Assembly: GCA_036172245.1 (NCBI GenBank)
Contig: JAYWIR010000005.1
Coordinates: 3,534,001-3,598,000 of the forward strand
Direction: 5' to 3'
DNA length: 64,000 nucleotides
Source: Raillietiella orientalis
Taxonomy: Eukaryota
This document shows positions 3,979 through 41,240 of this stretch, piece after piece (within the stretch, counting starts at the first letter, position 1; the number at the start of each line of letters is the position of its first letter). The notes beneath the pieces were generated by a model. It saw only the letters and a program-made list of their open reading frames with translations. It searched no databases and was not told where the DNA came from. A program made the position numbers and the translations under genes.

Positions 3979-4184
3979 TTGCCACCCGGACACGCCGGGG
4001 CGTTTATTTCAAATTCTCTTTGGTTCGTGGTACGAGGCCCTACTACGGCCAACTCAACTGGACCTGCCGGGTCGCCGGTACGCAGACCGGCGCGACTCTC
4101 CTCGGCAGCGGAAGGGGGTGGGGGAAAAAACAAAAAGAAAAATAAAACATAAAAACAAAAAGATTTGGGAGGGTTGGGGAGGGA

Positions 4185-7100
4185 TCACTGACCACTGGGA
4201 GGAGGGTCCATCCTTCGCAGGATGCCCTCGAGGTCCGTCCGTATAATCCCCAGGTGGGGCCATCTGGTCACAATCCGCAGGTAGCGGACTGCAAGTACGA
4301 CGGCATCCCTGTCGTGATTCAGTCTTCCGACGTTGCCTCAGCACGTCACAATCCCGCGTACGCACCGAAGTGGGCCAGGGCAGCGGCTGGACGCAGGGCA
4401 GCATGCACGAACAGAAGCCGAAAAACGTCTCTGGGCTGGCTGCCCTCCTGGATCCGTAGGGAAGCACGAAGACGTTCCCACAGGGGTCGGAGGGCAGCAC
4501 AATCAACAAGGAGATGGAGGAGAGTTTGCCGTTCCCCACACCTGATGCAAGTAGGATCTACTCGACCCCTGGTCCAGTGGTGGCGGCGTGCGTTGCAGGG
4601 TAGACCCCAATGCAACAACAGAAGCGCCGACTCCTGCCACTTCAGGGGGAGGATCCTAGTTTCAATTAATACCGGGGGCCACTTCAGGTCATCCGGCTGG
4701 ATGCCGAGTAGCTCGCTCCATCTCTGCAATCCTCTCGGCTGGACACTAGGGGTACTGGCGTCCGCCAGTTTACCCGTGGACCAGCCGCTGATCAACTTCT
4801 CCTTGCCTGCGATGCGGCAGGAGACTTGCCACCTAGGCTTGCGGCTGCTAAAGAGCGCCCTTCTCAACAAGGGCATCGCCGTAGCTAGGGGGGTTGTCTC
4901 TGCCCACGTGCTTCTCGCGGGACACTGGAGTATCTTCCGCAGAGTGCAGCGGGAATAGGCGCCGCGTCGCAGGCAGTTCCACATCTCTTCATTCTTCTCA
5001 TTGATCTTCGCCCACGTGCCAGCTGTCTCCTCCAGCCATGCGGAGGAGTTGGCGGGGCTGCATACCATCCAGCCGTTTTCCTTCGCCAGAGTTGCCATGC
5101 ATCCCAGGAGAAGTCCGCATCTCTTGATCTTCTTGCCACGGCAGAGAAGATAGGACGCGAGACCCTCCGTCCCGGATACACGGCTGGCAAGGAGTCGGGC
5201 CGGAACGCACGAAGAAGTGCTCCATAACTTCGCTGCGATGGCGAGGGTTCGCCATCGCAGCTGAATCTCTACTCACTCCATCGTCAAGAGGCCGAGACCG
5301 CCATCCCGACGTGGAGCACACAAGTCCTTCAACGGGACTCGGGCCTCCTTCTTCCCCAAAGGGCAATTCTCAGGCGGTCCTTTGTCCGTTTTTTCAACTC
5401 TCTGGGGACGGGGCAAACAAAAAGCAGGGGGCGGAGGATGGGAGCCGCGAACGCGTTTCATACCGCGGCCCGTTCCGGAAGGAGAAACTTGTCTTCCAGG
5501 AACGGGCCGATCGCCGTTTCCACTTTTTGGAGGCAGCCGGACCACGCTTCCGCAGGGGAGTAGTCCCCCAACGGCACACCAAGGTACTTTAAGCACCTCG
5601 CCGTGGGGATCCCCAAGCTGACCCAGTCCTGCTGCCCAGCCCACGCCGCACCGACTGGAACCACCGTCGACTTCGCCCTGTTCACCGTAAGTCCGGTCCC
5701 GCGGCTAAGCAGATCGAAGAAATCCCCGACCGCCTTCGCCGGGGTGGACATCGGCAACAGGAGCAGAAGATCGTCGGTATACGCTGCTACGGCGGGCGTG
5801 CGATGGCACGAGCTCGGCAAGGGGCCAAAGTCACCCTGTACGCTCTCAGCACCAACTCAAAGTAGGTGCTAAAGAGCAGAGGACTGAGGCTGTCGCCCTG
5901 CCGTATGCCCCGCCGTACTGGCACACCGTACGCCATTTGACCTCTGAAAGAGATATTGATCAGCGCGCTGCGCCAGCAAGAGCGCAGGTAGGTCAGTAGG
6001 GAGGGAGGGAAGCCCATGCGTCCCAGGAGCTCCAGCAGGAGATCCTGGTCCACGCAGTCAAACGCTTTATGCAGATCGACTGCGATCGCTAGGGCTCCCT
6101 TCCCCACCTGGGAGTCCTGTCCCTGCCCGGCTGACGCCCCCAAAGCGGGGCTCCCAATCCTTCTCTCTTCCTTTTCTTTCCTACTCTGCACATGAAACCA
6201 TGTGCTCGCGAAGAAGAGGTTGGCCTCCATACTTCGCCCGGGAACAGCGTAAGTCTGCTCCGGGCTAATTATGGAATTGGCCACCTGCCCCAGACGCGAA
6301 GCCCACAGTCCGGCGATCAGCTTGGCGTCCGTGTTCACAATTGTGATCGGACGCCAGTTGCTGAGTTTCCTGAGGTCTCCTCCTTTCGGAAGGAGCCTCA
6401 CTCTGGCTGACCGAAAGGAGGCGGTTACATCGCCTTCATCTCGGATCAGCCTTGTCAACTCAAGCACCAGGGGTGCCAGCTGTGCCGCGAAGCATTGAAA
6501 AAACTCCGCAGGCAGGCCGTCCTCCCCTGGTGCTTTCCGCCTCTTGAGCCTTTTGATACTGGCGAGAATTTCGCCGGTGGTGAAAGGCTCGTCGAGGTTT
6601 TCCTTCTCCTCCTCCCCTATTGCCGGGGCACCGTTCGGAAGCAAGAGCCGAGAGGCATCTTGGTCCGGGGGCGCCCTGGCGTAAAGGGAGGAATAAAAAC
6701 GCCGCACGAGGTGCCGTATTCTAGCCGGAGCCTAGTGCTTCCGGCCCTGGTCGTCCAGCAAGCTGGCCGATCCGGATTGCCAGGCTTGACGTTCGGCCCC
6801 GGCTCGGTACTCTGCCAGGCGACGGACATTGGGGGTCCTCGCGTAACCACGGGCATACAAGTACGCTCGTTCGTTACGGATGCCCTCCTCAAATCCCCGG
6901 GGCAGGAGGTGCAAGGGGAACTCCTCGCAAAACTCGCGGACCGAGGCCTTAAAAAGGTCCCAATCATTGAGATTGCGGAGGGTGACGCCTCTCAGGAATT
7001 CGCGAAGGTGTTCTTTCGCACCTGAGAGTCGCGTCCAGTCCCCAGGCAGACGCCACGCCCTGGATGGGGGGCCCTTGTCGCGCGGGCACACCTCGAATAT

Positions 7101-9700
7101 CAACCGGAAATGGTCAGACAGCTCCGACGCAACTTTCCCCCGTTTGCCGACCCGTGAATACAGATCGACATCCAGAAAGACGTGGTCGATGCTGCTGACC
7201 ATTTCCGAAAGATCCCCTAACAAGTTGCGCGTGCGCATGGCGGCGCACAACTCGTTAGCCGTCCGTTCCTGTGCGTGTGGCTCAGCTGACAGTAGGCGGA
7301 GATTAAAGTCTCCCGCTATCAGGTGAGCCACGCGCACGTTCGCTTCCGCCAGCCAGTCGCGCTTCAGGGTTTCCAGGAACGCCTTACGTTCCTGGTACCT
7401 GGTAGGACCGCTCGGAGCGTACACATTTGTTACGACGAGGTCGATCGTGTCGGACCACCTGAGAATCAGCTGGCCGACACGACCGGCTTCGTCAAAGCGC
7501 ACGCCCTTCACGGCTGCGTCGACTGCCGGCGTCATAAAAAACGCGACGCCGCAGGTGTATCGGGTGCCGCATTGCCACATCAGGCATCAGGCAGGGCGAC
7601 AGCTTAAGCCCCTTGCTCTTCAGCATCTTCTTTGAGTTGGTGCTGAGGGCAAACAGGCTGACGCTGGCCAACCTGCCGAGCTCTTGTCCAGGAACGCCGT
7701 CCGTGGCGGCCTATGCTGACGACCTGCTTCTCCTCTTACCCATGACCACCCCGGCATCCAGTCTCGAGGATTTCTTCGAGCTGATTCGCCGGGGAGCGGG
7801 CATGAGCGTAAACCGGAGCAAGAGCGTGGTCGTACCTATTGGTGCGGCGTGGGAGGGGCAGTCCGACTGGATCCGCCTGGGGATCCCGACCGCTTCCTCC
7901 GTGCAATATCTGGGCGTTCCGCTGGGGAACATCAGCCCAATGGAAGTGTGGTCGGACTGCCTTCGGAAGGCTTCGAATGCCCTGAGCCCGTTCCACCATG
8001 GCAGGTTCGTCCTGCCGGAGCGCGCCACGATATGGAAAACCTTCGTTGCCCCTCTCTTGCGCCCCCTGCTTTTTGTTTGCCCTCCCCCCTACTCGGCCAA
8101 GCTCCAGGCGCACAGCCTGTTGAGGAACGCTCTGTGGGGACCTGCGAGGTCCAGGATCCGCCTCAAAGACTTGGCGGCTCCGCGTCGGGATGCTGGCTTA
8201 GGCATCCTGACGCTGGAGAGAATCGAGCTGCAGGTGCAGCTTCGGATGTTGGCCCTGTGCGCCAACCTTTGGTCCACTCCGTGGTGCGCTCCCGCGCGCC
8301 TGCTTCTGCAGCGCTGCACAGGCAGCGATGGACTTCTGTCGCTGCGGCCGCACACGGAGCGCGCCACGAGAAGCTTCGGTTTCCCCTTGAAACCGCTGTA
8401 TCGGCTCCTGGAAGCCCAGGGATGGATCTCCTGCCGCCCAACGAACTTTAAAGCCTGGCGGCAGGAACCGTTGCATGGCTGGGCAAAGCACCAGGATGTT
8501 TCCCTCCTGGAACTCCGTTGCGCTCACCTCTCCCCGTACTGCACGGTGGATGAGGTGTGCAACAGCCAGGAGAAGTGGACCCGCCTGGCCGTCACCCCCC
8601 TCGAAGACGCACTGTCAGCCCTCAGGGCAAGAGATGACAGTTGCGAACCGGCGAGATGGGAGGTCGCCTGCACCATCGCAGGAACAACGCGACCTATTGG
8701 CGGCTGGAAGACTTGCGAGCTGGCGGACGCCGCCACGCCTCGCCACGTTCCGAAGGGACTCCTTCGGTGGAGCGAACACTTGAGTGTGCCCCTTGAAGAA
8801 CTTGTGGTTCCTCCCTCGTGTCTGAACACTTCTGTGTTCCCCCTTTCGTGGAAGCAGGACGTGATTATGCTGGTGCATTGGGGTTTTCACTCCAACCAGC
8901 GCACGGACCTTGTTTCCGGGGGAGTCGTCTCCCCAAACTGTAAGCGGTGCGGGGAAGTGGAAACGCTCCCGCACCTGCTCCTGGACTGCGGTGCCCTTCT
9001 AGGACTCTGGCGGAGGCTGGCCTCAGCTCTCCTGCACCAGGGGGACACCGCGAGGGATTTGATGCTCCGCTTCTTCACGCCAGGCGGCCTGTCATTGGGT
9101 GCTGTTGTTGCAACCGTGTGTTGCACCCGCGCCATCGACAAGGCCCACCGAGAGTTGGAGAAGCTGGCCATCCTTCGTCAGCCCACCGGATTAGCCAGCG
9201 CAAACATGTCGTCGGCTGCCCAGTGGGCCCATCTGCCACAGGGCGTGAGGAGAGAGATCGCCGGCATCCATCGCCGGTTCTGAAAGGAAGGAACGGCTGA
9301 ACCAAAGACCCCTGTCCCCTGCCCTCCATATCTTTATTTTTATTTTTTCTATACGGTGTATTTGTGGTCCCCTCCCTCCCGTTCCGGACTTTCGGCATAC
9401 CGACCTGCGTGTCGGGGATCCCACCCCCTTCGTCTCTTGTTTTCCCCTTTGTCCGGGAACCCTGTTCCCGGATAGTTTATAATAAACGCCCCGGCGCACC
9501 CGGGTGACAATCAACCGTCCCCCTGCGATCCTTTCGATCTCCTGGGCGTTCTCCGCGGTGATCACGTGGATCTCCTGCAGGAGTGCCAGGTCGGAGTCAC
9601 GCAGGGTGGCGGCCGTGTCCCGTCTGTTGCCGTCGTCGCGCAGCCCGTTCACGTTCCAACAGGCCACGCGTAATCGACGGCGACAGGCGAGCCCAGGTGT
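4185..9700 (-). pseudogene. B1 ORF2 (APE + RT + Cys/His finger), interrupted by C1 and frameshifted
   Basis: CWNVNG...LQEIH...GGRL|MWQCG...GDFN...SDH; KAPGEDG, WRPITIVNTDAK, DLHKAFD, QGDSLSP, YTDD; CIRCGE. Confidence 0.9.
7583..9510 (+). mobile_element. 5'-truncated element C1 (RT 3' half, open to 9283), antisense inside the B1 endonuclease
   Basis: Starts at GIRQGDSL; YADD; CKRCGEVETLPH; terminus AATAAACGCCCCGGCGCACCCGGGTGACAA; B1 sequence joins across it with only 3-4 bp duplicated. Confidence 0.92.
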
Positions 9701-11721: not shown

Positions 11722-14174
11722 TGGACACCGCAGATGCTCCACACACAAACACAAAAGAAACCAAACGCTTTAAACCAGGCGCGGAGGAGCGCTACAAAAA
11801 CACGTCCGCACGCCAAGTTGATAGCCAAGATGTGAGCAGAGCGTCTGGGACGGGTTGCCAACATCTTCATCCGCCCGAAACAGACATATGCTGTTCCCGG
11901 GCGAAGCATGGAGACGAACCTGTTGTACGCTTCCACCTGGCTAGAGCTCCAACATGAAAGGAGCTTGCTGCGCAGCCGGAATTCTGGTGCGTGCGCCGGC
12001 AAGGGGTTGGACGGTCGGGTGGGGGAGGGAGCTTTTGTGGTCGCAATCGACTTGCGAAAAGCATTCGATTGCGTCGACCAGAATTTCCTTCTGGAGCTTC
12101 TGGAACGCTTGGGCTTCCCGACCTCATTAGTAACCTATCTGCGCTCCTGCTGGCGCGACGCGCTCATGCATGTTACTTTCAGCGGGCAGACCGTGCACAA
12201 CGTGCCGGTGCGGCGTGGGAACCGGCAGGGAGACAGCCTGAGCCCCTTGCTCTTCAGTACCTACTTTGAGTTGGTACTGAGAGCGTATAGGGGAATTATG
12301 GCGCACCTGCCGCACGACTGTGCCGGTACGCCGGCCGTTTCAGCATACGCGGACGACCTTCTGCTGCTGCTCCCTATGTCCACCTTGGCTGCGGCGGTCG
12401 AGTAGTTCATTGACCTGCTGCATTGGGGAACCGGACTTACGGTGAACAGGGCGAAGCCGTCCGTGATGCCAGTTGGTACGGCGTGGGCAGGGCAGCTGGA
12501 CTGGGTCCGTTTGGGGATCCCCACGGTAAGGTACCTCAAGTACCTTGATGTACCGTTGGGGGACTACTCCCCTGCGGAAGCGTGGTCCGGCTGCCTTCAA
12601 AAAGTAGAGACGGCGATCGGCCCGTTCCGAGGCGGCAGGTTTTTCCTGCCTGAACGGGCCACGGTTTGGAACACTTTCGCGGCTTCTCTTCTCCGCTTCC
12701 TGCTTTTTACTTGCCTTCCCACAGAGAGAATTAAAAAGCGGACAAAGGACGACCTCCGTATCGGCCTTTGGGGCAACGGGAGGGCCCGATTCCGCTTAAA
12801 GGACTTGTGCGCTCCTCGTCGGGATTGTGGTCTGTGCCTCCTGACGCTGGAGCGGCTGGAGCTTCAGCTCCAGTTCCGCTTGTCGGCACTCGTTCCAGAG
12901 TTGTGGTGCACCTGTTGGTGCGTCCCTGCACGTCTCCTCCTTCAGCAAACCACCGGCAACACGGGACTGACGTCGTTTCTTTCACTCCGTCGCCGCGTCA
13001 ACCGAAGCGGACTCCAGCTACGGAGGGAGGCTGCGCTGTATCGCAAAAACCCAGGATTGCTCACCAGTCGGCCTTTGAACGGTGGTGCCTGGTGGCAGAA
13101 AACCGTTCGAAAGTGGAAACAGTTCGGCATGCAACGCTCCCAACAGGAACGAAGGTTCCTGTTTGGTAGTTACAGAAGTTGCACGCTCCGCGTGATCCTT
13201 AAGGATCCAAAGAAGAGAGCGTGGGCAGGAAGAACCCCCCTTGCTGCTGCGCTGCTCTCCCTGAGGAAGATCTGGACAGCGACGTTGCGGCGAAGTGGGA
13301 GGTTTGAGTTACAATCTCTGGAAAGGAGAAGAAGATAGGAAAGTGGAAGACGGGCCAGTTAACTGACGCTGGGTCCCCGAGTACGCCTCCCAATGGACTT
13401 CTGCGCTGGGGCGCGCTGCTCGATGTTCCTATTGAAGATCTGAAGTGGCCCCCGGTGCTCATTAAAACTTCCGCCCTTATCTTAAAATGGCAGGAGTCGG
13501 CTCTCCTGTTGCAGCACTGAAGACTCCCTTGCAACATTCGCCGACACCACTGGACCTGGGGAGCGGTGGACCCCAATTGCGTCAGGTGTGGGGAACGGGA
13601 GTCCCACCCCTAGTTTCTAGTGGATTGTGTTGTCCTTCGGTCCTTTTGGTTTCGCTTTGCCGCCGCCATCGGAATCCCCTGCGGCAACCCCAGGGACGCA
13701 CTGAAATCCCTCTTCGTTGCCGACGCCCTTCGGCCAGCGGCCTCGTTAGCAGCTTTGTGCTGCCTACGCGGGATCTTCACCGCTTGGAGCAAGGCTACGG
13801 GCGGACCACACGAACAGGGTGCCACTCAGCCTGCTTCCCAGTTCCTCAGGAGGGCGTCGCGATGGCCCCACCCTGATCCAAGCATGCAGCAAGAGCTTGC
13901 CGTCATCCTGCAAAGGATGGAACGGCCCCACCAGCAACTGTGATACCTTCCCTTACCATCCCAACTTTTCTTTTCTTTTTTGTTTTGTTTTTTGTTTTTT
14001 CCCCCTTTCCCCTGCTGCCGTGGTGGAGCGCACCGGTCTGCGAATCGGTGACCCGGCAGGCTCTGTGTTAGTTCGTGCGTGGCTGGAGCAATGGTCCAGA
14101 AACTCCACGTCTTTGTAAATGTTTTTTTTACGATAGACGCTTCGACGAAATCCGGGTAAAAATCAAACGCCTAG

Positions 14175-17100
14175 CGTGCTCCAGGGTGGACGCGTTTTCT
14201 CGGTGCTCCTCGTGCCAGGAAGTCTCCCCCAGTGCAAGCGTAGTGTGGTTCGGTGGTCGATCAGGCAGCGATGCCTGACGCGACCACCAGGGATGGCCAG
14301 GGGGCAGCGGAAACGCCGCCCCCAGAGGCGATGGAGAGCCAGGGGGCGGCGGCAACGTCACCCTTAGAAGCGATGGAGGTGGGGGCATCCGCCTTCACGG
14401 AATCGGTCCCCGCTGCAGCGCGGGCGTGGAGCGCCGTTGTGTCGGCGCCATCGCCTGCAGCCGCGGCGGAATTGTCGGCCTATGTGGAGGAGGGGTACAA
14501 CCCCTCATTGTTCTACAAGGTAGGCAATTTATATTCTTTAGAGAGCGCGCGCGCCTTCTCGAAGGACATGCGCGCTCTCGATGTGAAAGAGCAGGAGCTC
14601 AGCGCTATGACCATCCGCAGCGGGGTCTGTACGTTGAGGTCATCTGCAAACAAGCAGAGCTGGCCCAACGACTGCTTAAAACCCCCGTGGTGATGGGGAC
14701 GCGCAGGCTCCTCCCTACTACGGCGGACCGCAGCATGGTGGTCCACCTGTTAAGTGTTACCGTGCGGATGCGCAAGGAACAGGTTCGCGCCGGGTTGGAA
14801 GAATACGGAACGGTCCATGAGCACTGGACAACAGTTAGTCCTTTCGAGGACTACACGAGGCTGCAACACGGCCTCACTGCTGCGCGCGTGACCGTTCGGG
14901 AGGGCTGCACTCTTCCCCACAAACTGGTGGTCGAAGGCGAAACCGTCGACCTGTGGTATGTGGGGAAGCCGAAAGACTGTTTCTTCTGCAATACGTCGGG
15001 CTACCTCAAAAAGAGATGTCCTAATGTGCAGTGCCAAGTATGCGGAACCATGGGTCACACGAGGGAGGTGTGCCGTAAAGCAGCAGTGCGGCTGGTTCCC
15101 AAGAGAAACCTTAAAAACCGTGCCGGCTTCTGCAGAAAAGGCTGACTGCGAAAGCTGCCGCGAAGGCTGTGCCACCCGCGCCCAAGGCCCAGGCCGCACC
15201 CGAGACCCCGGCGAACAACGCCGAAAAAGTCAAGGGAACAAGCCAGGAGCCTGGGTGGCAGGTGGCTACTGCCAAAAAATGAAAGAAGAGGAGGATGGAG
15301 AAAAACCTCGCGTACCGCCAGAAATACAGCAGGCAAGCGAGCAAATTAAACAATGCAGCGTTGTTGTCGAGCGTATTCCCGACCGCTGCGTAAAAGAACT
15401 CGCCGCTACCGACGACAATCCCTCTGTTGACTCAGTCAACAGCGAGGGGAGCGAGCCGGCGGCGGCGTCCGTCATCGACACCAGCATCGATGACGTAGCC
15501 TTCGCGCGAGCCGCGGAGGAGCTGGCAGCCTCGTTGCAGCCAGAACCCTCCAAGGCTGGCAAAAAGGCCGTAAGGCGTCCGGACTCCCCTCAGGAGTCCC
15601 TCAATTCCGACCCCGAGGTGGAGGCCGGAAGCGCAGCCTCAGTTTCCACGGCACCGCGCAAGAAGGCTGGACGTAAGTCCACAAAGCCAAGGAAGCTCGT
15701 CTCCCCCGTCGAAGGGGAAGAGATGGCTTCCGCAAGCGAGGGTGCCATGAGCGTGGGAAACTCTCGGGACCCGTCGCCCGAGAAACTCCCACGCGCAGAC
15801 ACGGAGGGGATGGAGGGGGTGGAGGCCGAACAGGTGCCTCAGGTGCCTGAGAAGGCCGAAACCCCCATGGACATCCCGCCTGCCTCGCAAGAGGAGGGCT
15901 CCCCCACACCTTAATCTTCCCAGCAGTAATGCCGGGAATCTCCTCCCGCCGTCGTCTGCGCATCGCCGTTTGGAACGTGAACGGCATGACAGACGCCGGC
16001 AGGAGACGAGACATGGCCGCCCTTCTGGAGTCCAAGGACCTTACGCTGCTGCAGGAGATCCACGTGATCTCAGCAAAACAAGCGCAAGAGATTTCTTACC
16101 CGGTCACGCCGGGGCGTTTCTTCCATATAACGTAACCAAAAAATGCAATTATACAAAATAAACCAGTTGTGTACCAAACTCCCAACTGACGACTGAACAA
16201 GAATGAAGAGAATATTGCTGGCACGCAGGCCAAAGTAGCAGTTTTGTGAACGGTGTGGGGGTGGCGGGGAACACAAAGAAACCAAATTAAAATAAAAACA
16301 ATGAATAAGGGCGACGGGGTAAAGGTCTTTGGGATCGCTCTGGAAGAAACGGGGATAAAAGCATGGGCACGGGAAATTTTACCGAGCGAACGGGGACGGG
16401 GTATGGGTGGGCGAGAGGTCGCAGGGGTCACCGGATTGTGCCGGTCTCAAAGGTGTGTAAACCGGCGATGTATGCCGGTGATGTCCTCATTCACCTTGTC
16501 ACAAACATGAGACCACCTTGAAGCCTTCTCCATGAATTGAGCTGCAAGCAGGTGAGCCTATGTTCGCTGCGCTGACAACTCCTGGGCGTAGCGGGCCTTC
16601 ACGATGGCGCGAACGCAACACATGGTTGCGGCAATCGCGCCAACCGAAAGTCCATTTCTGCTGAAGAAGCGTTGCAGCACATCAATGGCAGTGCCTTCTT
16701 GTGGCATGATGGCCTAAGTGAGCTTTCGCCACAGTTCCCGGAGGTCACCGCAGTCCAGCAAAAGGTGCGGAAAAGACTCCATCTCTCCGCACCTTAAACA
16801 GTTTGGCAAAGCGGCTGCCCCGGAAACGATTCTTCGCTGCCTATTACAGTGTAATGTACGATGTAAAAAGAGCAGCACATCTTGTTTCCACTTAAGGGGG
16901 AACACGGAGCTGTCCAAACTAACGGGGGGAACCACTATGTCTCCAAGGGGCACACTTAAATGTTCGCTTCACCGAAGCAGGCCCTTCGCCCGATTCCGAG
17001 GTAAGGCGGCTTGCACCAGCTCCTTTGTCGTCCAGTTGCCGAGGAGCTTACTGACTCCCGGTATTTTGCAGGAGAACTCCCATTCCGCCGGTAGGAAACC

Positions 17101-19675
17101 GTCGTTGCTTGCCCTGAGGGCAGACAGCGCTGCGGCGAGTGGTGTGGCGGCCAGACGATCCGACAACTTCTTGTCCTGCATGACTTCGTCCATTTGATGA
17201 CTGAGGAGAAGTCGCAGTCGTCGAAGATCTTCCGGGCGCGTTCCTTCGGAAGCTTCCCACGATGGAAAAGATTCCTGCCGCCATAGATTAATGTTGATGG
17301 GGCGGCAGGAGATCCAGCTTTGGGCTTCCAGCAGTGAGGACAGCTGCCTCAGCGGGAAGCCAAACCCTATTCTGGTGTGCCGAATGTGGGGTAGCAACGA
17401 AATCAGTCCCTCGCTTTCCGTGCAGCGCCTCAGTATAAGGCGTGCGGGTAAGCACCACGGCGTACACCACAGCTTGGCACAGAGCCGCAGCATGCGAAAC
17501 TGCACCTGCAGTTCGATGCTGTTTAAGTCGAGGATGCCCAAACCTGCATCCTGACGCGGCGCCACCAAGTCTTGAAGTCTAACACGGGATCTTGCAGCGC
17601 CCCACAACGCTTTGCGTAGAAGGCGCTGCGCCCAGACTTTGACTTCCTGGGGGGGTGGACAAACAAAAAACAGGGGGCGGAGGAGGGGGGCAACGAAGGT
17701 GTTCCAGATGCAGGCCCGTTCCGGCAAGACGAACTCGCCTCCTGAAAACGGGCCAAGTACACGCTCTGCCTTCCGAAGGCAGTCCGACCACGCTTCTGAG
17801 ATGCAGAAGTCGCCCAACGGCACTGCAAGGTACCTGAGGTACCTGCCCGTGGGGATCCCCAGGTCGATCCAGTCGGACTGCCCCTCCCACGTCGCACCCA
17901 CCGGAACAACCATACACTTACTCCTGTTAACGCTCACGCCCGCACCGCGACGAATCAACTCAAAGAAGTCTTCAAGCGATGTCGCCGGGATAGACATGGG
18001 TAACAGGAGAAGCAGGTCGTCGGCATAGGCTGCCACGGCCGGCATACCTAAACAGGAGCTCGGCAGGCTGGCTAGCGTCAGCCTGTATGCCTCCAGCACC
18101 AATTCAAAATAGATGCTGAAGAGCAGCGTGCTTAAGCTATCACCCTGCCTAATTCCTCGTCGTTCCGGTACGCCGTACACGCGACAGCCACTGAAAACAA
18201 TATATGTAATCGCGTGGCGCCAGCAGGAGGGCAAGTACGCCAACAGGGATGCCGGAAGACCCAGACATTCCAAAAGCGCAAGAAGAAGCTTTTGGTTCAC
18301 GCAATCGAAAGCTTTGTGCAAATCGACTGCAACCGCCAAGGCTCTTGGTGTCTCTTCTTTGCGTCCCGCGCCTCCGTCGGTGAGAGATCGAAGGCGTCGA
18401 TTCCGCACGACGATCCACCGCCACACGATGCTGCTATTGCAGCTATGTGCGGATGAACAAGAAATTCGCGTCCATGGACCGCCCAGGAATAGCGTACGTC
18501 TGCTTCAAGCTTACCAAGGATTCCTTGATTCTACCCATCCGCGCCACCCAAAGTTTCGATAACAACTTGACGTCCGAATTCACTAATGTGATCGAACGCC
18601 AGTTGTTCAGTTGGCGGAAATCTCCGATTTTCGGCAGTAGACGCAACTGCGCTTATCGAAACGAGGCGGGGACATCGCCCGAGTCTCCCATCAGCGACGA
18701 GATTTAAAGCATCAGGGGGATGAGCTCCACCGCAAAACACTGGAAGAATTGCGCGGGGAGCCCATCTTCGCCTGGCGCTTTTCGTCTATTGAGCCCCGAG
18801 ATGGAAGAGGAAATTTCCTCTGCCGTGAAGGGCTCATCAAGACGCGCGCGTTCCTCCTCGTGCACAACAGGTGCATCAATCGGCAACAACAACCGAAAGA
18901 GGCTGCGTTCCGTCGGTGCCTCTGCATACAGAGAAGAGTAATATCGCCTGACTATCCGTCGCACGTCGGCTGCAAATGCAGCTATGTGCGGATGAAGGAA
19001 CGCAGGAGATCGAACGGATCTCCGGAGGGCGGCTATCTTACAGGTGTGGGAGAGCGAAAAGTTGCGGTGTCGCCTACCTGCTTCGGCCAGCCGTCGAGGC
19101 CACGGCTCGGGGCGTGCGGTTCGACGATCACGTTCGTGCCGGCCAGCTGACTCTCAGTTGGTCCGACTCGATCGTTCTGATCGTCACGAACGTGTACGCA
19201 CCGAGCGGCGAAAACCTGAAGACCAGGAGAGCGAGGAAAGAGTTTTTCCTTGCCCTCCGGCGAGACTGGCTGACCAAAGCAGGCGTGCGGAATGCCCATC
19301 TGGTAGCAGGCGATTTCAACGTTCGCCTGAAACCAGATGGGCAGAATCCCGAGCGTGACCTGGTAAACGAGGTGCGCATGGCAGTGCACACCTGTAATCT
19401 GTTGGCCAGTGCACCGAGGATGGAAGACAGCATTGACCACGTGTTTCTTGACGAGAATCTGTGCCCTCGCGTGGGCAGGCGCGGCAAGTTACCGTGCGAT
19501 CTGTCCGACCATCGCCCGCTAGTCCTCGAGATCCATCCGCGCGACAGGGGCCCCCCCTCGTCAGCGTGCCGTCTCCCAGGGGACTGGAGCGGTGGCTGGA
19601 GCAATGGTCCAGCCACCGCACGTCTTTGTAAATGTTTATTATACAATAAACGCCCCGGCGGAATCCGGGTGAAAA
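14175..19675 (+). mobile_element. Element A2, head-to-tail with A1; interrupted by E; lacks the whole RT (deleted from the EN end to the 3'UTR)
   Basis: 5' GGACGCG at 14188; disrupted ORF1 14271-15929; EN at 15929-16092 and 19011-19587; terminus CCGGGTGAAAA; downstream flank TCGAACACCTTG at 19676-19687. Confidence 0.88.
16093..19000 (-). mobile_element. 5'-truncated element E (RT + C-terminal region), antisense inside the A2 endonuclease
   Basis: KAPGEDG, DLHKAFD, QGDSLS, YADD, CLRCGE, stop at 16447-16449; terminus CCGGGTAAGAA; TSD CGCAAGAGAT (16083-16092) / CGCAGGAGAT (19001-19010). Confidence 0.9.
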
Positions 19676-30398: not shown

Positions 30399-30534
30399 TT
30401 TCCCCAAGTCCCACAAGGGGTGGGTTAAGTTTATTTTTTTCTATAAAAATACAATATTTACATTCGCACTCCCATTCACTCAATACAAACATTTTGCACT
30501 TGGGGGTTCTTGGGTTGCACTAGAGTTCTGCTTT

Positions 30535-33500
30535 TCAGGGGGGAATTCCAGCTGGATGGTCCCGGGCGTTCTCCTGGATCCTCTTCAGGATGAATCGGTA
30601 CATCCAGGCGTGGATCTTCCCGCAGTTCCTGATGCCGATTTCCCTCTTCAAGAGCCCTTGTAGGATCTCCATCGGTGGTGCGGCTCTCCTGGCTTTCCTC
30701 ATTTTCCACCACCGCACAAGTATGGCGGTGATGAAGAGGGCTATGGTCGTCCTCACCATGGGATTGTAACAGGGAACATTACCATCCCCATGAAACATCC
30801 CGGCGAGGATCTCCATAACGGACTCGTTGGTAAGTCCTATGCTCCTTTTCAGGATCAGCCATTCATGCAGCAGTGTGGGACACGTCAAGACGTGAAGTCT
30901 CGTGTCGTCGTCTCCACATGCTGCGCAGTCTCGATCTTCCCGTCTTCCTGTAAAGTACTGCAATCAGGACCCACTCTGGATTTCTCCGTGATAAAACATC
31001 AGGAGGTCATCCTGGGTGTCCGGCGGAAGGTCACTCCTCCAGAGCGTCGTGCCGATCGCTAACAGGTTGAACCGTTCACTCCCGTAGCGTTCGGTGGCCT
31101 CCTGGAGGGCACTGGTGTCACGGTCGTTTCCTTGGATAAGCCTTCGGAGGTTTGTTCTGGTTACCCTCGACCATGCGAAGTCGTTGTGGTTGAACCACAC
31201 TTCGCGGGTCCTGTGGGTAAACCTTTCTAACATCATCTCTGTATACCGAAGTATACGAGTTTGATGTAGGTAGCCTCCTCGCCTCCACTCCTGGATTTGC
31301 AGTAGGGTAACTCTGGACCGCTGGTAGAATCAGCTTTTCGTGTCCGGCGGGACAGGAAGCATCCAAGGGATCACCAGGATGGACTCGTCCTGCCAGAGTT
31401 CCCTGCTTCGCGGCACGATCTTGATTTGGTGCTTCCGCACCAGCCGTTGCTTCCTCCTCCAGGTCGGGTCGATTGTTATCCATTCCCCTACTTCGCCTAG
31501 CAGCGCAGTCATCAGGCCTTTCGAGTTGTTAAGCAACAACGCGTAGGCCCTGTGCGCCGCATACGGCCAGTCATCCCAGTGAGTGGCAATGTCCAGGATG
31601 TGTCGCGTATCCATGATTTCCATGGAATGTGCAAGCGACTTCATCCCGGAACCGCCTTCTTCCCTGGGACGACACAGGGATTTCAGTCTTACTCTTGGGC
31701 GATAGTGGCCCCAGAGTGTTTTTCTTTGCAGCTTGTCGAACTCCCTAGTAGTGTCCTTGTTCATCCTCGCGAAGGCCGCCCCGAAGAGCACTTTCGGAAG
31801 GAGTACTCCGTTTCATATGTTGGCCTTTCGCTTCATCCCAAGGTCGGTTCGGGTGTACTTGGCTGCTTCCTTGGCCGTTTTCCCCAGGATTTCCTTCCAC
31901 AGCAGCTTCGACGCAGAGTCGTCGCCGATGTAGACTCCCAGGTACTTGGCCGTGTCCACCGTACGGAATCCACTACCCGTTAGAGCGGAGAGGTTCAGGA
32001 TTCCGACGGGCAAAAGCTGGCTCTTCTGGGAATTGATTTTTAAGCCCAAGCCCTGTTCCATCAGGTCCACCACATCCAGAAACGCACGCTGATTTTTCTC
32101 TCCTTTGATGAAGAAGAGTAGATCATCGGCGTATGCCAGATGGGTAAGACGCTGGCCATCGATGGTAATCCTGCTCAGTCGTCCGCTCTTCTCGATAAAG
32201 GACAACAACGCCTCCATATAGATGACGAACAGCATCGGACTTAGCGAGTCGCCCTGTCGGACTCCTCGTTTCATCCTGATTGCTGCCGTCTCCTGGTCGT
32301 TGATCTTGATCCGGCAGTACTGGTTCTGGAGTACCGCCCTCACGAAGTTGCTGAAGTGTTCCGGAAGCCCTAGCTTCTCCAGAACCTTCAGCAGCATCCC
32401 GTGGTCGATGGAGTCGAAAGCCTTCTCCATGTCAGTGAACACCAGCACCAGGTTCTCGCCGACGTATCGACTGAGTCCAACAGTGGCCTGGGCACACTTG
32501 ACATTGTCCGACATGTGTCGTCCTGGGACTGCACATGTCTGGACCGGAAAGATCAGCCTCCACATGACCTTGCCTAAGCGGTTGGACCAGATCTTCGCCA
32601 ACCACTTGGCATCGGAGTTTAGGATCGAGATTGGCCTCCATTGGGCGATCTGGGTAGAGTCGCCTCCTTTCGGCAGCAATCTCATCCGACTCTCGTAGAA
32701 GGACTGAGGTAGTCTGCCTTCTTTCCGGATGCAGAGGGTCAACTGGTGGAACAAGCGCAGGTAGGCGTGCAGGTACCGCTGATAGTGCGTGATGGGTACA
32801 CTGTCAGGGCCCGCTACCACGTCCTTGCGAAGTTGCACAAACGCAGTCTTCACCTCTTCTTCGGAGAACTCCTCCTCCAGTCTGTTCCGCTGGAGGTCGT
32901 AGGTCCTCTTCTCGAGATAGCTCAGGAAGGCCTGTTGACTAGAGCGACACAGATGTTGTCGCCTGAAGTGTTTCGTGTAATGCCTGTGAAAGGCATCCAC
33001 GATGTCCTCAGACGACTGTCGCTTTTGGCCGTCGTACTGGATGCAGAAGATATCTGTTGCCAGATTTCTCTTCTCCAGCATGCCGACTTCCCCTTTTATG
33101 TTATTGAGGACATACCGACTCTCGTACTGATCGAAGTACTTTGAGAGGGAGCGATCTTGGATGTTCAGCTCCCGGTACGCCTCTTGCCTCAAGCGCCTAT
33201 CCCCGAACTGCATGTTCGCAAACAGGTGTATCCTGTGTTTCAGGCTGTCCCAGTCGGCGACTCTTCGGATTGTTGTTGCCCTCAGAATTGCCTCCAGGAC
33301 AGCCTGAAGTCCGGGATGGGTTTCGAACCAGGCGGGCATGCTGATGAGCGCCGCCCTGGTGCCTTGCCTTCGCCGAGGATTCTCCGTTCTTAGGGAAAAC
33401 CGCACCAGGGGTGATCGGACGCCGTAGTCATAGTGTCGCGAAACCCCTGGATGCGGTTCCCAAGTTCGGTGCTGTGCAGGACGTGATCGATCGGCTTGTG

Positions 33501-34052
33501 GCTTGCTGTTCGCCAGACCAGTCCGAACTCGTCGGATAGCCGTCGATACGCCGTCCTTCCTCTGGCGTCTTCTGAATGTATGATCTCATCCAAGATGTTG
33601 AGATCGCCAGCAACAATCACGACGTCCTTAGGGGTGACCTTTTGCCGGAGTGCTGCATGCAGCGCCTCCGCACAACGATGTTTTAGCCTGTGCGGCTCGT
33701 ACACGTTCACCAGGATAAGGTGAACAGTTGCGGACCAGGCCAGTCGCACGCCGATGATTCGTCCGGGTTGGGGACAGAACACTTCCAGAATAGTGGGGGC
33801 TAAGTGGTTCTTTATTAGCACCGCCACACCCTTCGTGTTCCGTTCTCCTTCGTTGACGAACATCTGCCCGTTGAATCGCCGTTCTATTCGCTGGCTTATC
33901 TCGAGACCCATCCTGGGGGTCTCCTGCAGGCACACGATGTCTTGTTGTGCGATGGTCCGCACAATCCTTCTTCTTTTTCCCTGGTCGACCACAGTGTTTA
34001 CGTTCCAGGAGGCGATGTTCAGCCTCCTGGCGGTCGATAGGGAAGAGGTCAT
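30535..34052 (-). pseudogene. J ORF2 (APE + RT + Cys/His finger), with frameshifts near 33400 and 31810 and further stops
   Basis: Consecutive ORF-track segments 33390..34157, 31813..33405, 31330..31791, 30964..31236 and 30535..30963. Confidence 0.88.
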
Positions 34053-34065
34053 AAAAGGGGAAGAC

Positions 34066-35826
34066 CTATTTCTTGGCCTTCCTGAGCTTCTTCTGTCTGG
34101 GAGAGCGTGCTCTTCCAGACGTCGAAGAAGCAGCGGGCTTCTCGCTGCCGGCGTCACTCTCCGTACCTGTGAGGTCGGTAATTTCTGCCTCCTCCGTAGA
34201 GTGTTCCGCCCGCGCGATCAATTTTCGAGATAGCGCCTCTATCTCGACCTTTGCGCAGAAGTTCGCCTTCACGTCGAGAAGCTGTTCCTCTAACTTCTCG
34301 CGTTCAGCGACCTCCACAACCTGGTTGATGTTCTCTTGTGCAGTGCAGATCTTCTGCAAGATTTTCTCTTGCTGAGGACCGCTCTCCACCTCCATGATCT
34401 CCTTCGCCAGTGTTGCAAACTCCTCCGTGGTCTGCAGAGCCTCCTGCGACACTTTAGTGGCTTCCTGTCTCTCTTCCTTCGCGCCTTCCTGCGCTGCTGC
34501 TTCCAGAATTTGAGGAGTTCCTTGCTCCTTGACGAGCATCCTCCTCTTTCCCTTCTTTCCCACTTCTATGAAGCCGTCCGCCGACACCGGGACGGCTTCT
34601 TTCACCTTTTTCGGCCTTCCTGCCTTCTGAGGCTGTTCGGCCTCCTTGATGTTTCTTTCTCTCACGGGAGAGAGACCTCGAATCCTTCTGCAGTTTTCAA
34701 ACTCCGGACAGCTCCATTTCGCATGTCCGTGTTTCTTGCAGAAGGAGCACACCTCTGGCTGCGGGCAGTTTCGGACTTGATGTCCTACTTTGCCGCAGCG
34801 AAAGCAGCGGCAAGTTAGGCAAGCGCCGGCCCTGTGGCCGAACTGCTTGCACCCGGTGCAGAATACCGGTTGTTGCCGGTAACGCACATTCACTCCCTGG
34901 GATTGTTCGTCAATAACGGCCAATCCAGGGATCACCGCTCCCTCCCTCAACTTCATCTTGGCGATCATGTCGCCAGAAAATATGTTTCCAGAGAAGTTCT
35001 GGAAATCAAGGTCCAGAACTTCCCCAAACTGCTTAAAGTAATTCCACACCGCTAGTTGCGGTGTGAGGATGGAGATGCCGTTTAAAAAGACGGTTGTGTA
35101 TGGCATCTCGCCAATACCACAAACCATCCGTCCTTGTATATTGATCCCCTTCTGGATCAATCGCTCTCTAATGTTTTCACAGTCTGTAAAGACTGTGAAC
35201 CCGTTGTTCGATGGAATGATCGCCTGAATGCGATCAAAGTCTATGTCCGTCTTGTCGAATGACAAATAGACCTCCCTGATGTTATTAAATTTTATTAGCC
35301 CGGTCTTGAAGATAATGGGCTTCACGTTATGGCCTATTTCGACTATTGGTCGGTCCACTTTTAGAACTTTTCCGCTAAGCGGCTTACCAAATTTCCTAGG
35401 TGGGTGGACACTCGCCTGTGCAGCCGCCACCGACGCATAAGAAAAGGGCTGCGACGCCGCAGCCGAACAAGATGGCGTCGCTTCCTGCTCCGCGTGGACG
35501 CCCGCGGGTCCCGCCTGGGACGCCGCCGCCGCGGGCGCAAACCTCGACGTTGCCGCCGTTACCGCCGCGGGCGGCACCCTCGGCATCGCCGCCGCAGGCG
35601 CGACCTTCCCCGCCGCGGGCACGATCCTCGGCGTCGCCGCCGCGGGCACGACCTCCGCCGTCGTCGCCGCGGGCACGACCCTTGGCATCGCCGCCGCCGG
35701 CGCAGCAAAGCCCGCCGCGGGCGCGATCCTTGGCATGCCTGCCACCGCCTCGCCGTTGCCGCACGTTACCTCCATGGCTTCCATGGGGGACGACGGTCTC
35801 TCCACTCCTCCTCCATGTGCCTGCAT
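34066..35826 (-). CDS. J ORF1, intact gag-like protein with three CCHC knuckles
   Basis: CTGCKQFGHRAGAC, CFRCGKVGHQVRNC, CSFCKKHGHAKWSC; first ATG inside the element is at 35826. Confidence 0.85.
   Translation of the reverse strand: MQAHGGGVERPSSPMEAMEVTCGNGEAVAGMPRIAPAAGFAAPAAAMPRVVPAATTAEVVPAAATPRIVPAAGKVAPAAAMPRVPPAAVTAATSRFAPAAAASQAGPAGVHAEQEATPSCSAAASQPFSYASVAAAQASVHPPRKFGKPLSGKVLKVDRPIVEIGHNVKPIIFKTGLIKFNNIREVYLSFDKTDIDFDRIQAIIPSNNGFTVFTDCENIRERLIQKGINIQGRMVCGIGEMPYTTVFLNGISILTPQLAVWNYFKQFGEVLDLDFQNFSGNIFSGDMIAKMKLREGAVIPGLAVIDEQSQGVNVRYRQQPVFCTGCKQFGHRAGACLTCRCFRCGKVGHQVRNCPQPEVCSFCKKHGHAKWSCPEFENCRRIRGLSPVRERNIKEAEQPQKAGRPKKVKEAVPVSADGFIEVGKKGKRRMLVKEQGTPQILEAAAQEGAKEERQEATKVSQEALQTTEEFATLAKEIMEVESGPQQEKILQKICTAQENINQVVEVAEREKLEEQLLDVKANFCAKVEIEALSRKLIARAEHSTEEAEITDLTGTESDAGSEKPAASSTSGRARSPRQKKLRKAKK
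35500..35745 (-). repeat. GC-rich coding minisatellite in J ORF1 (PAAA/PRxxPAA units)
   Basis: Repeated CGCCGCGGGC(A/G)CGA units. Confidence 0.85.
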
Positions 35827-35895
35827 CCTGGCAGCCGCTTCTTTGAGGCCCTCTTCGCGGAAGGCGAGGAGCAGGAGCAGCGTGGTTTGAATAAT

Positions 35896-37030
35896 ATCCG
35901 AGGAAGCTCTAGGGGAATCAGCCACCTATCAGGAACAGGTCTATAAGCCGAGCCTCAAATATGAGGTAAGCTGCGTATTGCAAGGGAATATCTCGCGTGC
36001 GATCGCGAGGGAATTCCGGAGACTTTACGTGAAGGAGGAAGACCTTGAAGAAATGGCATTTCTGAGTGAGAGTCGCCGCATCGAGCTGATCTGTCAAGAA
36101 GCAAGCCTGGTCTGGCTCGGAGCTTGTTAAGGACCCGATCGTGATCAACAGTCGCAAGGTCTTACCCTCTTTACAAGATCAGTCAATGGTGTTGCACGTA
36201 AAGGGATTCACCCTTCAAATGAAAATAGAGACAGTGCACGAGAAATCGCAGGAATTGGGCACCCTATACGCGTTATTAACCAAGCCGAACGCACTGGAAC
36301 AGTTCGGTTGGCTCTTCAGCGAGCTGGCAACCGCGCGCATCACGGGTGGGGAAAATAAATAGCTTCCCCACAAAATCAAGTTCGAAAGCGAGTCGGTGGA
36401 TGTCTGGTGCATGGGAAGCCCAAATACTGCGGGCATTGCGAAACTCCGGGACATCTGGTGATACGGAGCGGGGAAAGCGAATGCTGCGTTTGCAGAGAAA
36501 ACGGTCCCATGCAAATTGCATGTTCCACGAGGAAAACACCAGTACCCGCATCTGCTCGAGAAGCACAAGGCGAAACACGCCTGAAAACTGAAAAACAAAC
36601 CCAGTATGAAAAAAGTATAAAGGCGAATGCCGGATCCTCAAACCAGCAGGCAAACGCTTCCAAAGGGAGAGACGTACCGACGGAACTGGTGCGAGTGAGC
36701 GACGGCAATTGGTGAGGACTATAGAAATTCCAAAAAAGGCTCCGAGAAAGGGCAAAAAGGCGTCGCGTCAAAGAAAGGCTCCGCGAAAATCTCCATCAAC
36801 GATTGGTGGCCTTAGTGTGTAGAGACAACCGATGTACCACCGAGGCAGAGATTGCCCACTTCTATCCGACGATGCCGCGACGATCGCACGCAAATCTTCT
36901 GAGGAAACAGAGGGAGCCGCGAGATGCGCTGGATGAGATGGAGGAGGCCACATTCCAGCAGTCGTCGGAAGAACTCAAGGCCGAACTGCACGGCCAAGAG
37001 AGCGACATACGAAAGGTTTTGCAAATATCC
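35896..37030 (+). mobile_element. Old degenerate ORF1 remnant (K)
   Basis: YKPSLKYEV...GKPKYCGHCETPGH...EATFQQSSEELKAEL, with many frameshifts. Confidence 0.75.
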
Positions 37031-38534: not shown

Positions 38535-41240
38535 TTCTCATTCGGTTTCGCGGGTTATTCTTTTGAATAAAAGGAGAACCAGTGGCTTTACTGGTGGTCC
38601 ATCCACGCACAAGTAAACAGCACTAAGCCTACCGCGTCACCGGTTCGCACTCCAGTAGGTTCCACCACGGTAAAAGAGAGGGCTGGCAAAAACAAAATGA
38701 TATAAGAAAACATAAAAAAAAACATGAAACCTACTTCTGGAGGACACGGGAACGGATTACAGTCTCTGTGGGGCCTTTACATCCCCTCTAGAATGACAGC
38801 AAGCTGCTCTTTGATTAGGCTAACCAAATGTGTCCATCTTGTCGCCGTGCTCATGAATTCGGCTCTGCATTGGACGACAAGGTTATCGCGTTGTTCTGCC
38901 GTTGCCTTGCTCCAAGCAGCGACGATACCTCGAAAGCAGCACATAGCTGCTAACAAGGTCGCAGGCCGAAGGGCGTTGCAAATGAAGAGGAACCTAACTG
39001 CGTCTCTGGGATTGCCACAGTGGATTGCGATTGACGCGGAGGAGCGGTTCCAAAGGGGCCGAAGCGCAACGCAATCCATAAGGAGGGAAACCCGTTCTCC
39101 ACACCTCACACAATAAGAGTTCACCGCTCCCCAGATTCAGTGGTGCCAGCAGGAGATGCAAGGGAGTCCCCAAAGCAGCAACAGTAATGCCGACCCCTGC
39201 TATTCTAATGGGAGGGTGGGAGTGGTTCATCAGCACAAGGGACCACTTCAGTTGCTCCGGCGAAACTTCCAGCAGCTCGCTGCAGCTCAAAAGTCCAATA
39301 GTAGTGGTAATCCGGGCCTCAGTATCACATAGAAAACCCGTTTTCCTTTTCTTGATCTGTTTCTCCGTGCCGAAGACTTGAGCGACCACTTTCCATCACG
39401 CCGTAGTGTTGCTGTAAAGATGATGCAAGTGGGAAGACAATATTGCAGCGAGGAGGGTTTTCCTTGCCCATGCTTGTTTTTTGGGGATCTCCAGGTTCTC
39501 CCGTAACGTTAAGTGGTCGTTACGTGCAAACAATTGCCTGCGATCTATTTATGTGCGTTGTTCGTTGCTCTTCGCCCAAATGTAAACAGTTTTCTGCAGT
39601 CATGCAGATCCATTAACGGGGCGAGAGAAGAGCCATCCCGCGATCATTCTCATCAATTCGGCCATTCTCCAAAGCTGCAAAGCGCAGTGGGCGACTTGGC
39701 AGCGACGATAGAGCCTAAGGTAGGATGACAGTTCCACCTTGCCGGTGGCCTGTTTGACGAGGAGACGTGCCAGCTCGCAAGAGATGTTGCTATAATACTT
39801 CGTCACTAGTGCGAGTAATGGGAACTGTAGCTGGCTCTCCAGCCGCTTCATCGTCCGGAGGCCGAGAACGCCCTCTCTATGCGGAGCACTCAAGTGTACA
39901 ATCTGAACTCGGACCATACTCCTACCCCACTGGGCAATTTAGAGGAAGTCCTTCGTCCGCATTTTTCTCTCTGTAGTGGAAGAACAAAGAAAAGGTAGGC
40001 AACTCAAAAGAAGGACCGCCAACGCGTTCAACACCGCGGCCCTTTCCGGCAGGAAAAACCTGCGGCCTTGGAACGGGTCGATTGCCTTCTCTACCTCCTG
40101 AAGGTATCTGGAAAACGCATCCGAAGAGAGATAATTCCCCATCGGTACAACAAAGTACTTGAAGATCCGAACAGTGGTGATCCCCAAACGGACCCAGTCC
40201 TGTTGCAATGCCACGTCACACCAACTGGCATCAAGGATAACTTTGCCCGTTCAACATAAGCCCAGTTCCCAGACTCAGAAGGTCGAAGCAATCCTCGATC
40301 GCTGATGCTAAGTTGAACATAGGGATCAGTAACAGTAGGTAGTCCGCGAATGCTGACATCGCAGGCGAACCGCCATAGTTGAGGAAGGTACCCCAAAGTT
40401 TCTCTGTTCGCTCACCGTACCAATTCAATGTAGGTTCTGAACAGCAAGGGGCTTAGGCTGTCTCACTGCCGTATCCCACGCCGCACCGGCACGCCGTGCG
40501 CAGTCTGCCCGCTGAAAGAAAGGTTCATCAACGCGTCGCGCCAGCTGGAGCGCAGATAGGCCACTAACGAAGACGGGAAGCCCAAGCGTTCCAGGAGTTC
40601 CAGCAAGAGATTCTGGTCGACGCTGTCTAATGCTTTGCGCAAGTCGAGAGGGACCGCAGAAGATCCTTCCCCCACCCGACCATCATAACTCCAAGCGACG
40701 GACGCACCGGAATACCGGTTACTCAATAAGCCCATTCCTTGTTGGAGCTCTAACCAGGTGGAAGCGTGGATCAGGTTCGCCTTCCATGCTTAGCTAGGGA
40801 AGAGCATATGTCTGTTCCGAGCTGATGAAGGCGTTTGCAACGCGTAACAAGCGTTCAGCTTAAACCTTAGCTCTCACCTTAGCATCCGGATTCACTATTG
40901 TGATGGGATGCCAGTTTCACATGCTCCTCTGATCTCGTTCCTTCGGGAGCCGCAACTTAGCCAAGAAAAACGAAGCGGGAACGTCACCTGTCTCGCGTAT
41001 CAGGAAGGTGAGATGATGTACCAGGGGTGTAAGCTCAGTAACGAAAGTTTGATAAAACTCCTCGGACAGGCCGTCCTCTTATGGAGCCTTGCTCCTGTTG
41101 AGCTTCCCAATGGCCGAGATGATCCCGCCCATCGTGAAAGGCTCGTCGAAGGACTTCTTGTCCTCCTCCATGATAGCTGGAGCGCATTTCAAAATAAGAG
41201 TTGTGAGATATCCCTCTAGGGAGATGCTGCCGCGTGCGGG
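38535..41240 (-). mobile_element. Old degenerate A-like ORF2 3' half with a decayed 3'UTR (O)
   Basis: DLRKALDSVDQNLLLELL, VRRGIRQ, FADYLLL, CVRCGER; decayed terminus ...CCGAATGAGAA. Confidence 0.8.

Follow-up and report, generated by a model that had tools for sequence, protein, structure and literature searches.

The segment at positions 9481-9510 (+) of the window (the whole 64,000-nt stretch of Raillietiella orientalis DNA analysed here) is the 3' end of an L1-clade LINE (APE endonuclease and reverse transcriptase, RT), and it belongs to a large set of termini that stop without a poly(A) tail at one fixed base, the fifth behind a near-invariant CCGGGT. Direct reading gives AATAAA CGC CCCG GCG CAC CCGGGT GACAA, i.e., a poly(A)-signal-like AATAAA (9481-9486), a mini-hairpin CGC-CCCG-GCG (9487-9496), the CCGGGT anchor from which genome-wide and junction counts place the end (9500-9505), and a terminal pentamer of the form G-N-N-A-A (9506-9510), whose bases are, from duplications and empty sites, the last derived from the element (all +). 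The reading that we favour, with moderate confidence, is that ORF2p grips a folded module near the end of a polyadenylated RNA and would copy from the fifth base behind CCGGGU without pairing of the RNA to the primer.

The window is a nest of LINEs. The copy ending at 9510 (7583-9510, +; 1.9 kb) is 5'-truncated, retains ORF2 from the RT to the C-terminus (stop at 9283) and a 227-nt 3' UTR, and lies antisense in a sibling LINE, within the part that encodes the endonuclease; at its truncated 5' junction there is no full duplication, only a shared TCA. ORF2 contains PF03372 (APE endonuclease, N-terminal) and PF00078 (RT), above cut-off in 47174-49900, and ends in a weak zf-RVT (E 0.0005-0.04, below cut-off); ORF1 has zf-CCHC knuckles. 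Endonuclease, RT, duplications and 5' truncation (insert sizes run from about 50 to 5900 bp) identify the elements as APE-type non-LTR retrotransposons. The best solved-structure match of ORF2 is human L1 ORF2p (E 2e-43, 152 bits, versus 57 bits for R2, with only L1 and R2 among the matches), database matches are best at 20-30% identity, with none above 30%, nearly all without a name and no named Tx1 reference among them, and a protein atlas search returned generic APE+RT clusters only. An RT nearer to L1, two ORFs, a CCHC-bearing ORF1 and a Cys-His C-terminus place the elements in the L1 clade in its broad sense, including Tx1. Target-sequence preference, a Tx1-type trait, and a conserved structured 3' tail, a trait of stringent-type LINEs, are both present, and the relaxed (mammalian-type) L1 traits, a variable poly(A) tail and a T-tract primer, are absent. 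Full-length copies begin G(C/A/T)GGACGTGTTTT, a start found seven times in the window in several families (759, 41548, 42901 and 45211, +; 11809, 23389 and 25687, −) and possibly an internal promoter element.

The earlier note had listed nine such termini in six families together with their last pentamers, and all nine are present as listed when re-read from the sequence. The count of six families is supported by ORF2 identities of about 32-77% (between non-trivial overlaps, by segment), and the terminal module is kept between families down to about 32-38% ORF2 C-terminal identity. Besides 9510, the nine comprise GGCAA of the element running to 11809 (3979-4010, −, with an identical 15-bp duplication on both sides), a decayed AAAAA identified by direct reading (14132-14162, +) and, by direct reading and covariance model, AAGAA (16093-16124, −), GAAAA of a copy less than 100 bp long (19643-19675, +), GATAA (51082-51113, +), GTAAA, a 5-nt loop variant (54438-54470, +), GGCAA (56315-56346, −) and GAAAA (61720-61752, +). 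Two features that had been attributed to all nine are slightly less general: the A(A)TAAA-like signal deviates at 14162 (GATAGA) and 16093 (AAGAAA), and the GCG arm of the mini-hairpin is present in eight, 14162 having ACG instead. A covariance model of the termini, trained on 136 of them, missed 14162 (E 2) and recovered the other eight with E values no higher than 2e-4, six of these eight having been in the training set. A probable tenth terminus, strongly decayed and absent from the earlier list, was found by eye at 38535-38562 (−), where the covariance model gives no match; it belongs to an element at about 38535-41227.

Searches of the 210-Mb genome, with reversed patterns as control, extend the fixed end far beyond the window. 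The pattern of the earlier note has 1948 genomic matches (control 133), a strict pattern with TAAA in front has 1439 (control 0) and the relaxed pattern AATAAA N13-14 CCGGGTG has 3411 (control 3), and since genomic matches far exceed the controls these termini are not due to chance. Throughout the genome, AA occupies +4/+5 after CCGGGT in 1337 of the 1439 strict termini, about 7% being without it. The absence of poly(A) likewise holds genome-wide, with at least six A's from +4 in only 2/1439 strict termini; variable A tails, which would speak against a tail-less end, come down to these two and one match of a relaxed seven-A pattern. Five A's from +4 occur in 10 genomic matches, for a pattern whose total was not counted. 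Closer inspection on contigs C1 and C2 covered 80 stretches of 8 kb (the first 80 of the 1439 strict matches) and 60 of 3.8 kb (from the first 100 relaxed ones), which hold 177 termini (reversed control 0). AA stands at +4/+5 in 155 of these and +2 and +3 vary; the A run from +4 is two or three long in 148, four in 4 and six in 1. Endings other than AA are family-bound, e.g., GGCAT in four copies of one subfamily. An ORF2 C-terminus is missing upstream of 49/177 termini, many of them short truncations. Exact patterns of the module gave 0 matches in metagenome contigs and 0 in viral contigs, collections with few eukaryote genomes.

The flanks place the end of the element to the base. An upstream duplicate was found for 61/177 termini, versus 7/177 in a control with another locus, starting at +6 in 27, +5 in 13, +4 in 2, +7 to +9 in 11, +1 in 3 and elsewhere in 5; the 13 starting at +5 are about what a one-base chance match would produce, and the three starting at +1 are tandem copies behind an earlier copy. 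Duplication length is 13-15 bp in 29 of 50. Empty sibling sites, in the window and at sampled loci, resume at +6 without AA, in agreement with the earlier statement that target DNA follows the pentamer. Because duplications start at +6 and empty sites lack AA, the AA belongs to the element, whose end is +5. An origin of AA in the target is ruled out by these empty sites and by the 5' duplication copies, which AA precedes in only one of 65 candidates (156 termini), itself a tandem insertion. A few junctions carry two or three extra bases (L163, L159, L058). The distance from AATAAA to the junction is 24 nt in 156 termini and 25 nt in 21, and AA and the junction stay at +5 in the listed copies with a 14-nt spacer; since the junction keeps its place whether the spacer is 13 or 14 nt long, the end goes with CCGGGT and not with AATAAA. 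Pair counts use a set of 156 termini (164 matches less eight discarded as chance or too decayed) from which an A+T filter excluded several copies of the 9510 family; the 177-terminus set has no such filter.

On the target side, the first base is A in 63/177 and the second in 17/177, so that the primer does not end in a T-tract such as human L1 needs. The first target bases are family-specific (TCGA; ACA(A/G)C; C(C/T)AG; ATCA; CTTC) and differ within several families, and insertion sites recur, often as a fixed site in coding motifs of sibling LINEs. One family ending in GTCAA, outside the nine window termini, has a longer target consensus, CCAGTG..GCACCCGAAGCC (L039, L043, L061, L107, L123, L131, L152, L153, L155). 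Head-to-tail tandems occur at L087, L131 and L133, a new copy sitting at the 3' junction of a same-family copy with the target recreated. Tiny insertions, with little beyond the terminal module between the duplications, were seen at L093 (49 bp), L120 (54 bp), L042 (78 bp), L052 (90 bp) and L031, and represent extreme 5' truncation.

Two copies of one family do carry A tails. At L031 the insertion consists of the module and 11-12 A's between the copies of an 11-bp duplication, and at L032/L179 15 A's directly follow CCGGGTGT, with an 11-bp duplication outside them; in both, the A run (11-15 A's) starts right after CCGGGTGT and inside the duplication. A genome-wide search for CCGGGTGT followed by seven A's found the same two copies and no others, and other copies of the L032 family end in GTAAA and then target (e.g., L089). 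Because these A runs lie inside the duplications directly after CCGGGTGT, we infer that the RNA is polyadenylated at this site and that the tail is normally skipped. The two copies are the best evidence for a poly(A) site that would normally not be copied. Slippage or non-templated addition of A's could instead have made them; no long A run from slippage was found among 32 GAAAA-ending termini.

For the module itself two overlapping helices are candidates. In 128 distinct rows, the outer pair of the CGC/GCG hairpin (stem 1) is CG in 86, UA in 18, UG in 6 and AU in 5 and unpaired in 13, thus covarying C-G, U-A and A-U between families, and its covariation score was reached by 0/500 shuffles, a control that ignores kinship; the underlying alignment, A2, leaves out the 21 termini with 14-nt spacers. 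Kinship alone gives spacer positions 11-13 a mutual information of 0.37-0.42, versus 0.43 for the pair 1-10. On a quick tree of 128 ORF2 ends (the 49/177 termini mentioned above being left out, and a few short copies, L042 6927, L105 5387 and L065/L066, having taken a neighbour's ORF2), U-A forms one well-supported clade of nine U-A rows with three nested A-U rows and also appears on separate branches. Only this outer pair covaries, and the middle pair is broken in 28/128 distinct sequences. The mini-hairpin alone has −2.3 kcal/mol, versus −8.3 to −8.7 for a competing CCCGG/CCGGG hairpin (9490-9504, +); the mini-hairpin first described by the earlier note holds up in its outer pair, is partly broken in its middle pair and is weak alone, forming only part of the structure. 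The CCCGG/CCGGG helix is paired in 93.6% of cells with two-sided change in 3 cells, its arms being partly fixed by the way in which the sequences were picked. The same bases may instead form stem 2 of a pseudoknot (loop CCCG with CGGG); a model with both helices pairs 90.6% of cells, with 23 two-sided changes in one stem 1 pair and 3 in all of stem 2. A pseudoknot with a loop 1 of 0-1 nt over a stem of 3-4 bp would be sterically tight.

Further structure lies upstream. A (G)TTTA(TT) tract lies where it could form a helix with AATAAA, and with TTTATT-like tracts generally a helix of at least 7 bp is possible in 26/177 termini, versus 2.8 in shuffles; covariation of position 1 with this tract was rejected, T at position 1 facing T in 20/27. 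Upstream segments fold at z < −2 in 30% of 156 termini versus 12% of flanks, and many families have their own long hairpin, such as the family-specific 11-bp hairpin predicted by folding at 9450-9474 (+), 5' of AATAAA; for the 9510 copy, the predicted folding of the whole 227-nt 3' UTR does not surpass that of its shuffles (z −0.68). Several families share a conserved 3' UTR core, CTGCCG..CCGGT-CTGCG-ACCGG..CGGCAG (4064-4108, −), with further cores bearing the CTGCG loop at 56400-56444 (−) and 61605-61650 (+), 60-110 nt upstream of AATAAA in several families. Two-sided change affects 6/19 of its predicted pairs (18 sequences, picked by pattern for this motif), and the core is a candidate ORF2p binding site. 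A general long-range pairing of CCGGGT with an upstream ACCCGG was rejected as too sparse (25/141 UTRs and 11/49 clusters versus 7/141 flanks); where present, the upstream ACCCGG is part of the UTR core.

Under the measured start that we favour, the two A-tailed copies suggest that cleavage and poly(A) addition would take place 2-5 nt past CCGGGU, some 21-25 nt downstream of AAUAAA. ORF2p would then bind the terminal module, probably together with the upstream UTR core, to judge from their conservation, and the APE endonuclease would presumably make the nick, at a short family-specific motif, often in sibling-LINE coding sequence, that is observed at the junctions. Extension of the primer would need no pairing with poly(A) and would begin by copying the fifth base past CCGGGU (the position observed at the junctions), so that only the first two or three A's of the tail would be kept. 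A second nick about 13-15 nt away would give the observed duplication. The earlier note had proposed that reverse transcription starts at a position measured from an RNA structure even if the RNA is polyadenylated; the fixed end, the missing tail, polyadenylation and the count from CCGGGT all accord with the present data, and the RT is the putative measurer. For R2Bm, 3' UTR-directed priming without complementarity is established (PMC10499050).

Of other accounts, the one that survives best, though we consider it unlikely, is that the template RNA itself ends at +5, having been cut, or deadenylated and trimmed to a protein footprint, so that RT simply starts at the RNA 3' end, much as histone mRNAs finish just a few bases beyond their stem-loop. 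Such an RNA would leave an identical trace in the genome (fixed end, AA, no tail), AATAAA can be buried in a helix more often than chance, and the two A-tailed copies would be untrimmed escapees. However, Rfam (including the histone stem-loop and ribozymes) has 0 matches at gathering score within the window, and trimming should leave a spread of short A runs, not the two or three A's of 148/177.

Read-through priming, reportedly proposed for R1Bm, is distinctly improbable here. The transcript would enter the flank, and its first 3-5 target-derived bases would pair with the nick, fixing both the start and the target motif. The family-specific first target bases fit this, and downstream homology sharpens R2 initiation (PMC10499050), but target starts vary within several families and the A-tailed copies would have been polyadenylated before the flank. 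A search for the terminus followed by up to six bases and A8 gave five matches (four places), namely the A-tailed copies (two), a target-derived A run (one) and one of ambiguous origin, and among them no clear case of 3' transduction with a downstream tail. RNA-templated bases past AA showed no enrichment, in that mismatches between duplication copies do not cluster next to the junction (in a less constrained test, false duplications predominated), and tail bases match the replaced target bases at a rate near chance (14-22/59 per position). Least probable is an element ending at G-N-N to which RT adds two untemplated A's before engaging the RNA: empty sites lack AA and R2 is described as adding untemplated bases at unpaired primers (PMC2718515), but such additions vary in length and letter, whereas AA is found in 155/177 and its exceptions are family-bound.

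The same layout recurs in a distant LINE lineage with an ORF2 identity of 28-35% to the main families. Its window copy (about 30399-35925, −) has a tail-less end (30399-30435, −) reading AATAAA, 5 nt, CCCAC CCCTT GTGGG, 4 nt, GGGG, AAA, which is followed by unrelated flanks in the window and at L037 (about 5140-5180); no duplication was found around the window copy. Signal, GC stem, C-rich loop, 4-nt linker, G run and short A's are in common with the main module, and the sequence is different. A pattern for this end has 77 genomic matches (control 0), with at most five A's after the G run (mostly 3-4, counted by eye) and none of six to ten, within the range set by its demand for a non-A at the eleventh base, which excludes tails of at least 11 A's. 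Its flanks often begin ATCG or ATTG, and its ORF1 has short imperfect tandem repeats in an Ala/Pro-rich start (window 35502-35734). Tentatively, and as a possibility to which we give less than even weight, a small fold of about 20 nt joined to a poly(A) signal, either a pseudoknot or two-state, might act as a ruler with which L1-clade RTs pass over the tail and initiate at one exact base, with no need to pair with the primer; it might be old or useful enough to exist in different-sequence versions in two lineages 28-35% identical, and, freed from T-tract priming, each family's endonuclease could have evolved a separate target in the catalytic genes of related elements.

The choice of the first copied base by LINE enzymes is still called unclear in PMC7265360, and the thousands of natural insertions, base-exact end, 30-nt signal and one-base spacer variants described here make a small testable substrate. 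They suggest that poly(A)/T-tract priming is dispensable for L1-like elements, a point of relevance to the evolution of target specificity and to clean junctions in retrotransposon-based insertion.

Among known systems, UnaL2 of eel (L2 clade) has a conserved 3' stem-loop tail needed for retrotransposition (PMC1636434), and here too a conserved structured 3' module is common to all families; the UnaL2 terminus consists of TGTAA repeats that serve slippage (PMC3747384), whereas the present elements have no terminal repeat, one fixed end base and an L1-like protein. Maize L1-clade LINEs and Chlamydomonas L1-1_CR share both the clade and a conserved 3' hairpin with compensatory changes, but L1-1_CR, like nearly every plant L1, has a poly(A) end according to the same source (PMC3747384), and a long A run is found here in only 2/1439. 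R2Bm recognises a compact core within the 3' UTR, and its priming needs no complementarity of RNA and primer (PMC10499050), and by analogy a similar priming is proposed here; R2 differs in having one ORF, a restriction-like endonuclease and a 28S rDNA target, as opposed to two ORFs, an APE nuclease and an RT nearer to L1, and Drosophila R2s end in variable poly(A) (PMC2718515). In human L1 priming, poly(A) pairs with a T-tract and the tail left behind is variable (PMC3649969), and human L1 ORF2p positions a stem-loop adjoining the tail (PMC12503042); APE and RT, duplications and 5' truncation are in common, but here there is no tail and ORF1 has CCHC knuckles. Target preference, tandems and similar duplications recall the Tx1 clade, which is described as preferring targets that include other transposons and as inserting in tandem around the duplication (PMC4494074), ancestral R1, with 14-bp duplications (PMC2718515), and SART1, which like R7Ag needs and keeps a poly(A) tail (PMC7265360); here, however, the targets are coding motifs of sibling LINEs and there is no tail. 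Twister ribozymes of Perere-3 lie at its 5' end (PMC8501958). That some non-LTR elements lack a 3' tail is known in general terms (PMC2881922); the literature searched, with most subscription papers and Repbase outside its scope, yielded no text on Tx1L 3' ends and no description of a fixed tail-less end in the L1/Tx1 lineage. The termini described here refine the theme of stringent 3' recognition and do not define a new class of element; the present analysis contributes the genome-wide counts, a second lineage with the same layout, the covarying pair and the two tailed copies from which the poly(A) site is placed.
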